Of a stretch of DNA of 64,000 nucleotides, positions 6,417-63,564 are shown in pieces. The translations under genes and the position numbers were made by a program. The notes below the pieces were generated by a model. It saw nothing but the letters and a program-made list of their open reading frames with translations, had not been told where the DNA came from and ran no database searches. This stretch comes from Eledone cirrhosa (Eukaryota): NCBI GenBank assembly GCA_964016885.1, contig OZ024752.1, positions 19,778,001 to 19,842,000 of the forward strand, in the 5' to 3' direction. The first letter of the stretch is position 1, and every line of letters begins with the position of its first letter.

Positions 6417-6610
6417 CAAAGGAATTGTGGTAAGGAACCAGATGGACCATAACGCACCAGAGTACACAATACTTAGGGTAGTAGAGTGGGAAATAGGAAA
6501 AAGTATGACCCCGACGGCAGAGCTCAAGCCGTTTCGACGGCTATTTCTGGAGTCCAGAAATACCCGTCGAAACCGCTTGAGCTCTGCCGTCGGGGTCATA
6601 CTTTTTCCTA
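6415..6610 (-). mobile_element. Fold-back HHR mini-element family F1 (~115-bp palindrome plus ~80-bp tail) in (TA)n
   Basis: Palindrome at 6493-6611 contains the HHR 3' half GAAA-cggc-ttgagctct-gccg-TC-ggggtc. Tail is shared with 4-5 other copies. Confidence 0.85.
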
Positions 6611-7011
6611 TATATATATATATATATATGATAATAATGGAGCTGCGGCGTTGCAAATGGGTTACATATGAAAAAGTTTGTCCTTCATCAGTGGCCTTCC
6701 AACCGTCGTAGGCATTTCGTCGCTTTAAAGGCCATATACCTCAGGTTGGTGCGAGCAACGGCTAAAAAAAGTCGTTGGGACACGTAAATAAAGGGGACGC
6801 TAGGGTAAACAAACAAAATGGTTTAAGCAACAGTATATATATATATTTCGTTTCTGAATTTGTTTAGAAACATTCTTTATCTGAAAACGTGTGTTGAAAC
6901 CGATATTGTTATACTTTGGGATATTGTTATATGTTGTCAACACACACACAGAAACAAAATGGCGTAGGGCAGAACAAAGAAGAGGCACAAAAACAAAGAA
7001 AAGAATCCCCA

Positions 7012-7054
7012 GTCACTGAAGAAGTCACAGAATGTGTGACGAAAGAACTTTGAC
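7012..7054 (+). ncRNA. Minimal type I hammerhead ribozyme (Penelope-type)
   Basis: gtca-CTGAAGA-a-gtcaca-gaatg-tgtgac-GAAA-gaac-TT-tgac; stem I gtca/tgac; 6-bp stem II. Confidence 0.75.
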
Positions 7055-7270
7055 AATATATAAACAACTATCTGGTTGTGGAACCAACCAACCAACCAAC
7101 CGGAAATTTATAAATTCCTAAATTTATAAATTTATTATAATAAATTGAAGTGAAAGCAACTGGTGCGTGTGTTTCTTATTGGCAACATGACCCTCCCAAA
7201 GTATAACAATATATATATATATATATTAAGAAAGTAAAACAAAGAAGCCTTCAATACATCAAAAGTCTTT

Positions 7271-12090: not shown

Positions 12091-12126
12091 AGTCAACATT
12101 TCGGGCGTTAGTCCTTCATCAGAAGA
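12091..12126 (-). ncRNA. Degenerate hammerhead ribozyme (family of 56913; another remnant at ~8860-8890)
   Basis: tctt-CTGATGA-a-ggactaacgccc-GAAA-tg-TT. Confidence 0.55.
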
Positions 12127-17831: not shown

Positions 17832-17849
17832 TAAATATATATATATATA

Positions 17850-18042
17850 GAAAAAAGTATGACCCCGACGGCAGAGCTCAAGCCGTATCGACGGCTATTT
17901 CTGGACACGAAATAGCCGTTGAAACGGCTTGATCTCTGCCGTCGGGGTCATACTTTTTCCTATTTCCCACCCTACTACCCTAAGTATTGAGTACTCTGGT
18001 GCGTTATGGTCCATCTGGTTCCTTACCACAATTTCTTTGTTA
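17850..18042 (+). mobile_element. Fold-back HHR mini-element F1
   Basis: Palindrome followed by the tail ...ggtccatctggttccttaccacaatttctttgtt(ta)n. Confidence 0.85.
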
Positions 18043-22401: not shown

Positions 22402-22453
<52 letters not shown>

Positions 22454-22455
<2 letters not shown>

Positions 22456-22648
22456 CGAAGAAGGTGTGGTAAGGAACCAGATGGACCATAACGCATCAGA
22501 GTACTCAATACGTAGGGTAGTAGAGTGGGTAATAGGATAATGTTCAAGACCCCGACGGCAGAGCTGAAGCCGTTTCGACGGCTATTTCTGTCCAGAAATA
22601 GCCGTCGAAACGGCTTGAACTCTGCCGTCGGGGTCTTGAACATTTTCA
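22454..22648 (-). mobile_element. Fold-back HHR mini-element F1
   Basis: Same tail; palindrome at 22538-22645. Confidence 0.85.
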
Positions 22649-22709
22649 TATATATATATACACACACATACATATACACACAGACATACACATATATGCA
22701 CACATAGAT

Positions 22710-22745
<36 letters not shown>

Positions 22746-22748
<3 letters not shown>

Positions 22749-22946
22749 GGAGTAGGTAAGACCCCGACGGCTGAGCTCAAGCCGTTTCGACGGCTAATTC
22801 TGTACTAATAGTACCGAATTAGCCGTCGAAATGGCTTGAGCTCAGCCGTCGGGGTCTTACTTACTCCTATTACCCACTCTACTACCCTAAGTATTGAGTA
22901 CTTTGGTGCGTTATGGTCCACCTGGTTCCTTACCACTTTTCCCTCG

Positions 22947-22947
<1 letters not shown>
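22746..22947 (+). mobile_element. Fold-back HHR mini-element F1
   Basis: Palindrome at 22746-22870 with a variant stem II, then the tail. Confidence 0.85.
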
Positions 22948-22988
<41 letters not shown>

Positions 22989-23228
22989 AAGGTATATATT
23001 GAGTTAGAAACTCAAAATAGTCTCTTACAATAAAATAGCTCTAGGAAAGAGATATTATATTTGAATATAAAGGAAAAACGAACACAGATATATATGTGTT
23101 CAAATCGTAAGGGACCAGATTCGCTAAGGTGAAAAGAATACTACCTATAGACAATTGGGTTTGCTTGTCTCAATTTAAGAAAAAAAATCAAGAAAATAAA
23201 TACAAACCGGAATTGTGGTAACTACCAA

Positions 23229-23308
23229 TCACCCAGACAGCTTTGGGTATACTGTTTCGCAAAATTAATTGTGAAGAGGAATATCGATTCTTGCTCATCA
23301 GTGGGTGA
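23229..23308 (-). ncRNA. Intact type I hammerhead ribozyme inside a ~680-bp inverted duplication (23050-23730)
   Basis: tcaccca-CTGATGA-gcaaga...ttttgc-GAAA-cag-tatacccaaag-ctg-TC-tgggtga; 7-bp stem I. Confidence 0.9.
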
Positions 23309-38583: not shown

Positions 38584-38831
38584 AAACGATAAGTTCTTGT
38601 TTTGGGATATGTCAATATTTATAAAACAATTTTTGTATTTTATCTGATGAGTGCGTACCAAAATTTTGGTACCCTTGAAATATATATAATAAAATAAATA
38701 TCTTTATAAAACCATATTTATTTTATTATATATATTTCAAGGGTACCAAAATTTTGGTACGCACTCATCAGATAAAATACAAAAATTGTTTTATAAATAT
38801 TGACATATCCCAAAACAAGAACTTATCGTTT
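38584..38831. repeat. Perfect ~118-bp inverted repeat with an HHR in each arm (38636-38696 +, 38719-38779 -)
   Basis: tattttat-CTGATGA-gtgcgtaccaaaattttggtaccctt-GAAA-tatata-TA-ataaaata and its exact reverse complement. Confidence 0.85.
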
Positions 38832-39785: not shown

Positions 39786-40878
39786 TTATGAATTACATTT
39801 TGCCTAGTTATCTGTTTAATAAAAAAAATTGTGTCGAAACTATTGTAAAGATTAAATATTTGAAGAAGTTCTGTCTGCATGATATATAACGGGCTTCTGC
39901 AGGTTCCGGCTATCAAATTCCAGTCAGAAGTCTTTAGTCAACCCGAAGCTATAGTAGAAGAGCCATGCTGCGAGACCAAGTAGTTGTGGAGGGAACTGCT
40001 TGGCCATACAACCATGGCCGCACCTATAGATATGGAATAGGAAGGAATCGATTGATCCCAGACCTCATTCGTTTCTCGAGTGAGGTGGAACTCGTTCAAT
40101 TGGACCATGGAATCAATGTTTCCTTCAGTCTTTCCATTGCTGATACTGTCTTCCAGTCGCAACTCCTGGCAGAAAGAGCAACATGAAATACAGTGTGTTT
40201 TTCAAGGACATAACGCATCACCTGGTCCAGGAATCGAACTCACAACCTCATGATTTCTAATCCAAGTCTCTAACCACTGAACCACGCACCTTATGGAATA
40301 CATTAAGAAATGTTGTTATGAATTCAACATGCAAACAAAAGTTCAGGTAAAAGGTTTCTGAACAAGTCTTAATAAAAATTGGTGGATTCTCTATCACTTT
40401 CCATCAATTAAACGTCCAATTAACGTGTAAGTAATTAATTATTCCACAGACACGTGTACCCTTACCATAATTACCAAGCAGGATCACTGTAACACTATAT
40501 GAGACAAGGTTGGACTTCTGAATTTCACGTACAATTCACCTGACAGACTTCTATACAGTCAATTTCATAGGTAGATAATTATAATTATAATCGGAAAGAA
40601 TGAAACGAAATTTCATTTCTCACTCTTAGTACGGCTGTTACTTAAATATAAGTATGTATACGTACATACATATATGTATACAGACGTACAGTAGTATGTA
40701 TATATATATATACATACATGCATATATATATATGTACGTATGGATTCACCGGACATTTATTATAATGCTCGGTGTGTTTCCTCCTGTTGCATTGTATGCC
40801 TACGCCATCTTTTATAATTATAATTATAATTATAAAAGATGGCGTAGGCATACAGTGCAACGGGGGGAAACATAATAG

Positions 40879-40922
40879 CACCACTGACGATGTTGCAGAT
40901 GTGCAAGGAAAGAACTTTGATA
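40879..40922 (+). ncRNA. Degenerate hammerhead (family of 7012/55865)
   Basis: cca-CTGACGA-tg-ttgca-gatg-tgcaa-g-GAAA-gaac-TT-tga, preceded by a hairpin at 40775-40872. Confidence 0.55.
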
Positions 40923-41842: not shown

Positions 41843-42250
41843 CACACACATATACATATATATATATATATATACACGCACATTTATATATATACATATA
41901 CACAGGTATATATATGGGCCCCACAGTTTCATTTCACATTATATACATTGGTGGTGGATTGGCAGTATCGGTAGAGGGTCGGACGCCATTCTTTGAAGCA
42001 TAGAGTTACCTCCTTTTATGATCTGAGTTCAAATCCCGCCGAGGTTAACTTTGCCTTTCATCCTTACGGGGTCGATAAAATAAAGTACCAGTAATGTACT
42101 GGGATGATTGCTGGCCTTGTGCCAAAAGTAGAAACAATTATATACATGCCTGTGTATATTTTAATTATTTAAAAATTATTTTTAAGTGAACATGATTTTT
42201 AAAAAATATTTTGAAGTGAACATGATTCGACGAGTCACGGGTGGTCTAGT
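41146..42250 (+). mobile_element. Non-autonomous Helitron-like element with nested SINE A (41950-42140)
   Basis: 5' TCTAT...gcttgcttgtctgt start, shared with 63683-63940, and 3' ...cacgggtggtCTAG|T end. Confidence 0.6.
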
Positions 42251-42434
42251 ATATATATAAAATTCTAATTATATATATATAATTGATATATAGAGTGGGA
42301 AATGAAATTTCGTTTCCCACTATCGTTTTCGGTGCACCCGGCCGATTAACCCACTCGATATGCAAATTGGGCTACTCAGCCGTTAATATGCATAAGGTAA
42401 GTATATACGTTCAACAATCTGGCAGGAAGGTATA

Positions 42435-42475
42435 CGTTGCTGACGATAGCTAATAAGCTTGAAACTAGTACAGCG
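42435..42475 (+). ncRNA. Minimal type I hammerhead ribozyme
   Basis: cgttg-CTGACGA-tagct-aata-agctt-GAAA-ctag-TA-cagcg; palindromic stem III ACTAGT. Confidence 0.85.
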
Positions 42476-42676
42476 TTCCTTTGTCAGTGTTGAACAAACG
42501 AGCAACGATGGTTGCTGGACACTACGGCTTAATACGGGATGTTTGTTTACAAACACACCGAGCATTATAATAAATGTTCGGTGAATCCATACGTACATAT
42601 ATGTGTGTGCATGTATGTATATATATATACATACTACTGTACGTCTGTATACATATATGTATGTACGTGTACATAC

Positions 42677-42735
<59 letters not shown>

Positions 42736-42836
42736 CATATAGAGAGAAGTACATATGTGTTCAATCATAAGTGATCAAAAACCTCTGTACCATACGTGTT
42801 TTCTTAGTTATCTAATATATTTTTTATAGAAGTAGG

Positions 42837-42915
42837 CACCCACTGATGAGCTACATCTACAATATGGATTCTTCACTTATAGCGAAACATACTCTTATTT
42901 GGGCATGTCCGGGTG
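42837..42915 (+). ncRNA. Type I hammerhead ribozyme (related to 23229)
   Basis: caccca-CTGATGA-gcta...tagc-GAAA-cat-actcttatttgggc-atg-TC-cgggtg. An inverted copy of the element's 3' tail lies upstream (42742-42790). Confidence 0.82.
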
Positions 42916-43150
42916 ATATTGTTATAATCGAATGGTTAGTATACTTTAATATATTATTTTAATCGACTTGTATTCACCATTCCTTCCGTAGGTAATATGT
43001 TTGTCACTCTGGTGGTTTTTGATCCCCTATGATTGAACACATATCTCTATGTGTACTTCTCTCTATATATTGATTTATAAAGAGCCCAGAAAATATATTC
43101 CTTGAGGTCCCTAAATTATAGGGGATTAATGTGAGTTTTTAACTCCGTTA

Positions 43151-43913: not shown

Positions 43914-44022
43914 TCTTTGCGGCCATATTGCTCTGAAAACACCGGTCTCCAAAGTTAAGCAACGTCCAGCCTAGTTAGTACTTAGATGGGTGGCCACTTG
44001 GGAACCCTAGGAACTGTAAGCA
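43914..44022 (+). pseudogene. 5S rRNA-derived sequence (pseudogene or SINE3 head)
   Basis: cggccatattgctctgaaaacaccggtctcc..aagttaagcaacgtccagcctagttagtacttagatgggtggccacttgggaac matches eukaryotic 5S with A/C boxes and an internal deletion. Confidence 0.85.
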
Positions 44023-55484: not shown

Positions 55485-55611
55485 ATATATAATAATAATA
55501 ATTATGGAGATAAAACGAAGAAGTCTCGATAAGATCCTGTAAATGGGTGGAAAGCAGCGATTATTTGCTTAAACTTTAATCTAATATATAATATATATAT
55601 ATATATATATA

Positions 55612-56092
55612 TTGTTATAATTTGGGAGGGTCGTGCTGCTAATAAAAACATACGCACCTGTTGGTTTTCACTTCAATTTCTGGTTGGTTGGTTCGATAAC
55701 CGGATGGTTGTTTATATATTGCCAAAGCTCTTTCGTCACACATTCTGTGACCTCCTCAGTGACTAGCTTTTTATTTTGTGTGTCTCCTTTGTTCTATCCT
55801 ATAACATCTTGTTTTTGTGTGTTGTGTGCAGGACAGAACAAAGGAGAGACACAAAATAAACCCAGTCACTGAGGAGGTCACAGAATGTGCGACGAAAGAG
55901 CTTTGGCATATATATAAACAACCATCCGGTTATCGAACCAACCAACCAACCAGAAATTTATAAATTGAAATGAAAACCAACAGGTGCGTGTGTTTTTATT
56001 AGCAGCACGACCCTCCCAAAGTGTAACAATATCTGTTTCAACACACGTTTTCAGATAAGAAATCATGCAAAACAAATTTAAAAACGAAGTAC
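55612..56092. mobile_element. Head-to-head inverted duplication of an HHR element (HHRs at 55721-55763 - and 55865-55907 +)
   Basis: gtca-CTGAGGA-g-gtcaca-gaatg-tg(t/c)gac-GAAA-gagc-TT-tggc in both arms. Confidence 0.85.
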
Positions 56093-58376: not shown

Positions 58377-58389
58377 ATATATATATATA

Positions 58390-58583
58390 AGAAAATGTTT
58401 AACCCCGACGGCACAGCTCAAGCCGTTTCGACGGCTATTTCTGGACTATTCTGTCCAGAATTAGCCGTCGAAACGGCTTGAACTCGGCCGTCGGGGTTTA
58501 AAATTTCCCTATTACTCACTCTATGGTATTGAGTACTCTGGTCCGTTATGGTCCATCTGGTTCCTTACCACACTTTCTTCGTT
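58390..58583 (+). mobile_element. Fold-back HHR mini-element F1, followed directly by SINE A (58583-58766)
   Basis: Palindrome at 58393-58506 plus tail. Confidence 0.85.
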
Positions 58584-59137: not shown

Positions 59138-59177
<40 letters not shown>

Positions 59178-59182
<5 letters not shown>

Positions 59183-59700
59183 TAAGTATGTATACGTACA
59201 TACATATATGTATATAGACGTACACCAGTATGTATATACATGCATACATGCACACATATATATGTACGTATGGGTTTACCGAATATTTATTATAATGCTC
59301 GGTTTGTTTGTAATCAAAAACAACCCGAATTAAGCCGTACAGTGTTCGGCAACCATCGTTGCCCTTTTGTTCAACACTGACGAAGGAACGATGAACTAGT
59401 TTCTAGCTTATTAGCTGTCATCAGCACATGACAGCTAATAAGCTAGAAACTAATTCATCGTTCCTTCGTCAGTGTTGAACAAAAGGGCAACGATGGTTGC
59501 CGAACACTGTACGGCTTAATTCGGGTTGTTTTTGATTACAAACAAACCGAGCATTATAATAAATGTTCAGTAAACCCATACGTACATATATATGTGTGCA
59601 TGTATATACATACTGGTGTACGTCTGTATACAGATATGTATGTACGTATACATACTTATATTTAAGTATCAGCCGTACTAAGAGGGAGAAATGAAATTTC
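59178..59700. mobile_element. ~240-bp inverted duplication folded at an HHR core (HHR at 59391-59427 -)
   Basis: gtg-CTGATGA-cagct-aata-agcta-GAAA-ctag-TT-cat; same family as 42292-42680 and 40600-40775. Confidence 0.85.
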
Positions 59701-59713
59701 ATTTTTTACATTT

Positions 59714-62944: not shown

Positions 62945-63564
62945 AAAACAAAGTACATATTAAACTGTACAGGCAACAACATCAAAGCAATCAATGGCAG
63001 TTTATATCAAGCATGTCGAAGATTTCAAGTATCTTGGGTCCTGGATCATTGACTCTGAGAAGGATTTTGCCACCAGAAAGGTCTAAGTATGGTCAGCTTG
63101 CAACAAGATGGATCGAGTTTGGTGCTCAAATATTTCCAACCACACCAAAATCAGACTCTTCCAAGTAACAATTCAACCAATCTTGCTATATGGAAGTGAA
63201 ACATGGACGCTTTCATCCAAACATCAAAAGCACCTTGATGGCACCTACACTCACCTGCTTCAACGCATTCACAACATAAGCTGGCGACATCTGACTTTGA
63301 AAGAAATATATGCCAGCCTCCCACGCATATCTGTCGTTGTACGTAAAAGAAGAGTAACATTTGCTGGCCACTGCCATCGTGCCACCTACGAGGCTGTGTC
63401 CTTATTAGTGATTAGGAAACCACAAGCAGTCACTAATAACGGGCGCAAGCTCCCCTATCCCGATGTCATCTCCAAGATTTGGCAACGACAATGAACGACA
63501 GACCCACGTGGAGATCAATTGTTGAGTCGATTTCGGCTGAGGCCGCCGGATGATGATGATGATA
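62945..63564 (+). mobile_element. RTE-clade LINE, 5'-truncated, with (GAT)n tail
   Basis: KHVEDFKYLGSWIIDSEKDFATRK..WSACNKMDRVW..TKIRLFQVTIQPILLYGSETWTL..RRVTFAGHCHR; ends ggatgatgatgatgat. Confidence 0.92.

Follow-up and report, generated by a model that had tools for sequence, protein, structure and literature searches.

A short, ORF-less hammerhead unit with a probable Penelope-like integration footprint in the genome of Eledone cirrhosa

The window analysed here is a stretch of 64,000 nucleotides of the Eledone cirrhosa genome (GenBank assembly GCA_964016885.1, contig OZ024752.1, positions 19,778,001 to 19,842,000 of the forward strand), across which TA microsatellites and SINE-like repeats are abundant. 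It contains a family of hammerhead-bearing sequences with 4 copies (A, B, C, and D) at 3 loci, as well as a second hammerhead family of a different type. The features are as follows, with positions counted from the first letter of the window:

42292..42683 (+): copy A, around 0.95 of a unit, comprising the end of the tail with the block, the spacer, the hammerhead, and the 3' part
42292..42316 (+): block, 25 nt representing the distal portion of the tail, 5'-terminal in copy A
42322..42433 (+): spacer, family-wide as judged by contig depth, around 120 nt in the unit map
42434..42476 (+): type I hammerhead motif, a putative ribozyme judged by sequence, folds, and one compensatory pair
59177..59426 (-): copy B, forming the left arm in a head-to-head pair with copy C and ending without a tail at site 1 followed by (TA)n
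59428..59713 (+), 3' end approximate: copy C, right arm of the inverted pair, carrying a tail
40592..40779 (-): copy D, 5'-truncated downstream of the hammerhead, with a 51-nt tail from 40642 to 40592
40775..40872 (no strand): foldback of flanking DNA at the 5' junction of copy D, found by sequence self-comparison
7016 (+), 55869 (+), 55759 (-), and 6844-6921 (-): copies of the second family, with a minimal-type ribozyme motif

Copy A is flanked by TA-rich repeats and ends, without a tail, at the same site 1 as copy B. Copies B and C form a palindrome that spans 59177-59664 with 94% identity, and its left arm, copy B, is a fourth family member that the first-pass annotation of this DNA had missed. 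Copy B starts 2 nt before the hammerhead core and 32 nt upstream of the predicted cleavage site, and copy C starts inside the core, around 28 nt upstream of that site; the tail of copy C runs from 59665 to around 59713, where its end is blurred by decay, and TA/GA repeats follow. Identity over aligned columns is 90% for A-B, 90% for A-C, and 96% for A-D, and the 98% shared by B and C, compared to 90% with A, fits a single insertion event. The predicted cleavage site is crossed by 3 of the 4 copies and is the start point of none. Tandem multimers of the kind envisaged by the first-pass annotation did not turn up, with a tandem copy absent at 3 of 3 loci and no array within the 64 kb. At copy D, 17 nt of (ATAATT)n are present twice, at the centre of the foldback (40814-40830) and beyond the tail (40575-40591), like a target duplication, and the foldback may be a by-product of integration.

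The unit has a GC content of 39% and stop codons in all six frames, leaving no ORF and hence neither the RT nor the GIY-YIG frame of an autonomous EN+ Penelope-like element (PLE); likewise, no RT or GIY-YIG Pfam match was found in the 150 of 206 complex ORFs of at least 55 aa that were scanned in the window. Folded as a circle, copy A reaches a z-score of -7.7 (0 of 60 shuffles), which derives partly from TA-rich and private hairpins, and its non-microsatellite part gives -3.3 (0 of 100 shuffles). The miRNA-like Rfam matches on the TA-rich part were rejected as lying far below their thresholds.

The hammerhead motif comprises a helix I of 6 bp (42434-39 paired with 42471-76) followed by a bulge and an extension, for which the 3' part of the spacer (42409-42433) is predicted to pair with 42477-42495, so that the extended helix reaches around 24 bp over 42409-42495 (z -3.4; 1 of 100 shuffles as stable). 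The core elements CUGA-N-GA and GAAA lie at 42440-46 and 42461-64, respectively. Helix II has 4 bp, and the G10.1-C11.1 pair that usually forms its base is replaced by U.U in copy A and by C.A in copies B and C; helix III is short (2-bp) and formed by the palindromic ACUAGU at 42464-69. Cleavage is predicted after 42470 in copy A and after 59455 in copy C. Family variants include one compensatory pair in helix I (42437 with 42473), 6 of the 24 listed variants break predicted pairs without listed compensation, and unpaired positions hold no significant excess of variants (9 of 22, P 0.35). The motif goes undetected by Rfam at gathering level, and no hammerhead match falls on it at E <=10 over 42200-43000. 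Published accounts, as far as their available parts go, describe the canonical type as having a 6-bp helix I, a 4-bp helix II, and a short palindromic helix III (PMC4209133), and the axolotl hammerhead HHR_Amex2 is described as having U.U in the basal position of helix II (PMC7229834). By its sequence, the motif would thus fit the canonical form of type I hammerhead that animal retrozymes carry. Assignment to the minimal, PLE-type hammerhead was rejected on the published definitions.

The block occurs at 42292-42316 (+), 59681-59704 (+), and 40626-40602 (-) and at no other site in the 64 kb: A degenerate block pattern yields 3 exact matches plus the reverse strand of copy A's own block at 2 mismatches, and 0 of 100 shuffles match. 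Between copies A and D, 24 of 25 positions are identical (blastn E 1.5e-5). The distances given by the first-pass annotation, around 150 nt upstream of the cleavage site in copy A and around 230 nt downstream of it in copy C, agree with our measurements: In copy A, the block ends 154 nt and starts 178 nt upstream of the cleavage site, and in copy C it starts 226 nt downstream of the equivalent site after 59455. The same annotation let the block terminate the minus-strand copy at 40600-40775; the block does lie near the end of copy D, but this copy continues for around 10 nt to 40592, and the additional sequence matches the one found ahead of the spacer elsewhere in the family. Imperfectly palindromic in itself, the block becomes a perfect hairpin in copy A at 42294-42321 (z -6.0). 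This hairpin is private to copy A, since most contigs bridging 42316 carry around 7-8 extra letters, and it reads in the sequence as a private rearrangement at the copy's 5' end. We considered whether the palindromy might render the orientation of copy A ambiguous and rejected this, given 0 mismatches on the forward strand versus 2 on the reverse.

Copies C and D extend from the 3' part via 21 nt into the block; copy A runs from the block into the 120-nt spacer and then the ribozyme. Joined through an overlap of 22-35 nt, these segments would close the unit map at 410-426 nt: Arithmetic within the window gives 410 nt, the letters at 42316 that copy A lacks and the contigs carry bring the family unit to around 418 nt, and an 8-nt indel near 42407 brings it to around 426 nt. 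The order of the unit is tail with block, spacer, hammerhead, 3' part, and tail. The permuted monomer of around 400 nt proposed by the first-pass annotation was therefore well founded, with a unit of 410-426 nt that is ORF-less, strongly folding, and equipped with a canonical-type type I hammerhead.

The order of the family was checked in 4 of 24 listed public sequencing runs, compared over 42200-42600, a stretch that stops short of the 3' end of the unit and of its end-to-block junction. Contigs matching this stretch numbered 7401 of 16.3 million in run X1 and 91 of 0.76 million in run X6. In X1, summed contig depth, which is not a copy number, amounts to 1.1-1.4 million over 42354-42437 in the spacer versus 1.1-2.1 million over 42438-42591, and falls at 42321. 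Immediately before that position, the consensus of 74 loose ends in X1 matches 21 of the last 22 positions of the D tail when compared by eye; these loose ends have a median length of 12 and an agreement of 0.72, and the outer 6 consensus letters are unlike the block. Position 42316 is bridged with 6-8 D-like extra T-rich letters by 8 contigs of X1 (725 of 1112 summed depth) and 1 contig of X6. Among the loose ends listed, no alternative upstream junction falls between 42322 and the ribozyme, where only the 8-nt indel occurs. No listed contig covers the whole of 42200-42600, and no single molecule joining the 3' end via the block into the spacer was seen among the contigs over this stretch. 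As the adjacency of block and spacer recurs in contigs, the succession of block, spacer, and hammerhead is a family-wide order and not the product of a chance neighbour.

Depth in X6 peaks at the ribozyme, but no weight is given to this peak because X6, like every other listed run, is not recorded as RNA. Words of the stretch are present in 20 runs of 16 studies, and runs from other organisms contributed 14 low-depth contigs of 23.6 million (X12) and 6 of 12.8 million reads (X23) over 42200-42600, with none of the 6 matching X23 reads lying on the element. We do not read this list as a sign of wide distribution, because carry-over in traces or a low number of copies would give the same picture. 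Exact-pattern scans gave no match in metagenome contigs, viral contigs, or prokaryote genomes. The spacer also carries AAG/GTAAGT at 42395-42403, which we take to resemble a consensus 5' splice site and which is destroyed by an A at 42398 in around 44% of X1 depth. An intron can occur within the pLTRs of PLEs.

The 3' ends of the 4 copies fall at just two sites, with A and B ending at the same point before (TA)n and C and D around 50 nt further, after an extension (51 nt in D) that runs through the block. The permutation among the copies is therefore not random, and its breakpoints are fixed. PLE insertions are described as having an optional tail of 30-40 bp, 5' truncation, and an adjacent inverted copy (available parts of PMC8557442 and PMC3846280), and each of these features has a counterpart here: Two of the 4 ends are tailed and two are tail-less, B and C form an inverted pair, and D is truncated with a foldback. 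The targets are AT-rich as well, with (TA)n beside A, B, and C and (ATAATT)n beside D, which is weak evidence because TA runs are very common in the window. In vitro, as reported in the accessible portion of PMC11167929, the PLE endonuclease prefers ATT, uncleaved RNA is the main template, and the tail corresponds to the sequence that separates two internal sites at which the RT can start. Internal initiation on an uncleaved tandem transcript would explain a pLTR with an optional tail, so that a circle is not needed (PMC11167929, in the same portion). In a PLE, the tail forms the beginning of the following unit's body; here the body is no more than the 120-nt spacer, so that tail sequence recurs shortly before the ribozyme. 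An autonomous partner did not turn up in the window, and PLE mobilisation is thus argued here from anatomy.

We consider it probable that this abundant, ORF-less unit of around 410-426 nt is a non-autonomous element of retrozyme type that is copied by PLE RT/endonuclease from fixed internal sites. A PLE protein acting in trans would nick AT-rich DNA, and cDNA synthesis would begin at either of two internal sites, of which site 1 would yield copies such as A and B and site 2 the tailed copies C and D. The RT would then traverse a hammerhead that is uncleaved or has been re-ligated, and occasional copying of nearly the full unit, as in copy A, would bring tail sequence to the 5' end. This would call for a template longer than one unit, which might be a transcript, partial-tandem or multimeric, or else a circle. 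The first-pass annotation had taken the permutation as a sign of a circular or concatemeric RNA; the permutation is real, yet its breakpoints are fixed, it bears the signature of a PLE tail, and a circle is not needed, as a tandem transcript explains it equally well. More generally, circular permutation among genomic copies does not alone show a circRNA. That the family nonetheless gives rise to an abundant circRNA is possible, though we lean slightly against it. A bolder proposal, which we think somewhat unlikely, is a cephalopod-type retrozyme in which a circular RNA of around 420 nt serves as template for a Penelope RT with two fixed starting points, which can travel almost once round it. 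Were this true, the tail and the inverted arms would be a direct trace of integration and would prove that the retrozymes of animals ride on PLE machinery, and a cis signal of around 50 nt would be named.

The strongest competitor of a PLE-mobilised short unit holds that the copies are 5'-truncated ends, each a pLTR plus tail, of a long autonomous PLE, and that the 420-nt unit never moves alone. All of the integration features are those of autonomous PLEs, and animal PLE hammerheads are mostly single motifs of truncated copies (in the part of PMC4209133 available). This would require a second copy of the tail block in the element's 3' region, yet a block present twice in an element at a distance of 420 nt is itself a tandem unit. 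Moreover, no ORF-like junction upstream of the ribozyme appears among the loose ends listed, where half of the block is instead the majority sequence before the spacer, and the ribozyme is of canonical type, in contrast to the minimal type described as typical of animal PLEs in the same part of PMC4209133. We therefore regard this reading as unlikely, and a longer autonomous element with the block as its terminal repeat, an alternative that the first-pass annotation had itself raised, is disfavoured.

Quite improbable, in our view, is a satellite-type retrozyme for which nothing PLE-specific is invoked, with circRNA from an array primed anywhere by any RT, or copies spreading as fragments of array DNA, and with a permutation that would mirror the circle. 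The size, the GC content of 39%, the canonical-type ribozyme, and the strong folding all fit animal retrozymes, an extended helix I of 24 bp would keep both ends of a monomer joined after cleavage, and the cleavage site is the start of no copy. Such a process is, however, at odds with 3' ends at only two sites (2 + 2 of 4), with the head-to-head inversion and the flank foldback, and with the lack of an array in the window; it also sits poorly with the like anatomy of the window's minimal-hammerhead family, which shares a tail of around 55 nt at 2 of 4 ends and forms inverted pairs. Finally, that the block represents a short hairpin repeat of independent origin, an objection foreseen by the first-pass annotation, or arose in copy A as a chance chimera is hardly credible and largely refuted: The block is an imperfect palindrome with a perfect hairpin in A, and the D junction shows that template switches occur at these loci, but the block is confined to family copies within the 64 kb and adjoins the spacer with a D-type continuation in many contigs.

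A short unit copied by PLE machinery would combine properties of two described element types. The non-LTR retrozymes of animals (Cervera & de la Pena 2020, PMC7229834, described here from its available parts) are ORF-less units of 150-450 bp without LTR, with GC below 45-50%, a strongly self-paired predicted RNA, and a canonical type I hammerhead, examples being those of mussel (350-390 bp) and axolotl Rtz_353 with HHR_Amex2, whose U.U is also seen here. The present unit agrees in all of these respects (410-426 nt, low GC, ORF-less), but no tandem array of it was seen in the window, and its copies lie scattered in truncated and inverted form and are optionally tailed, features absent from the available parts of that paper. 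EN-bearing PLEs (from the portions available of PMC8557442, PMC11167929, PMC3846280, and PMC4209133) share with it a terminal-repeat hammerhead, an optional 3' tail, 5' truncation, a head-to-head inverted copy, TA/ATT-rich targets, and a template not cut at the ribozyme. They differ in that the unit has no RT/GIY-YIG ORF, a tail-to-ribozyme body of around 120 nt versus around 3 kb, a tail of around 50 nt that is longer than the published 30-40 bp, and a canonical-type instead of a minimal ribozyme. Circles are the rule in the retrozymes tested, and PLEs are called a "strong candidate" for mobilising animal retrozymes (both in the available text of PMC7229834); circles have been proposed for PLEs, too (PMC4209133, in part).

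The idea that retrozymes are non-autonomous PLE derivatives is already in print (Li, Clavereau & Pollet 2026, bioRxiv 10.64898/2026.07.22.740005, of which a part is accessible) and corresponds to the model favoured here, since both invoke a short unit derived from a pLTR and moved by PLE machinery, with dispersed monomers being common. Non-autonomous Chlamys elements such as MRC1 come close to the same model (PMC8557442, in its available part). The preprint argues from co-occurrence and pLTR homology across 35 species, whereas the argument here is the integration footprint, and the words "tail", "octopus", and "mollus" are absent from the accessible portion of its text. It calls a retrozyme active where two consecutive units have complete ribozymes, an arrangement that does not occur in our window, and the same portion reports that 8 of 9 predicted Xenopus elements failed to cleave in vitro. 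The repeat annotation of Octopus vulgaris lists 31 recently active Penelope-like families, and "ribozyme" and "retrozyme" are absent from the available portion of its main text (PMC13282606). Our literature search, whose scope did not extend to curated repeat libraries and supplements, returned no paper on hammerhead retrozymes in octopus or other cephalopods; the family may already be present in Repbase, Dfam, or paper supplements. PLEs are proposed but unproven mobilisers of retrozymes, and an ORF-less unit of retrozyme size with a PLE tail and inversions would link the two by mechanism. In addition, the unit offers a short natural RNA for testing a circle against an uncleaved tandem as template.

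The second hammerhead family, at 6844-7226 and 55595-56091, is of the minimal type with a long helix II and no helix III loop, and a motif related to it lies at 40884 (+), just past the foldback of copy D. Hammerhead motifs of yet another family, with a long helix III, are found at 42837-42916 (+), which is 160 nt downstream of copy A, and at 23301 (-), with a faint match to Rfam HH9 (E 3.1). A 248-nt palindrome at 38584-38831 (97.6%) contains converging hammerhead-like motifs at 38644 (+) and 38771 (-), a tail-to-tail pair that is the opposite of the usual head-to-head arrangement. Further hammerhead-like motifs reside in short repeats at 12122 (-), 56917 (+), 7309 (-), 33514 (-), and 61545 (-), and other palindromic repeats centred on TA runs at 6493-6611, 17847-17963, 22404-22999, and 58387-58512. 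Just upstream of copy A, a separate repeat (42168-42258; around 80-90 contigs in X1) with a 30-nt tandem duplication ends in CTAG before TA, which presumably resembles a Helitron 3' end. The sole gathering-level Rfam match in the window is a degenerate 5S rRNA copy at 43915-44022 (+; 61.7 bits), and a frame of 135 aa at 63087-63491 (+) with a weak match to DUF6451 (E 0.0012) looks, as we presume, like the part that follows the RT domain in an RTE-type LINE.
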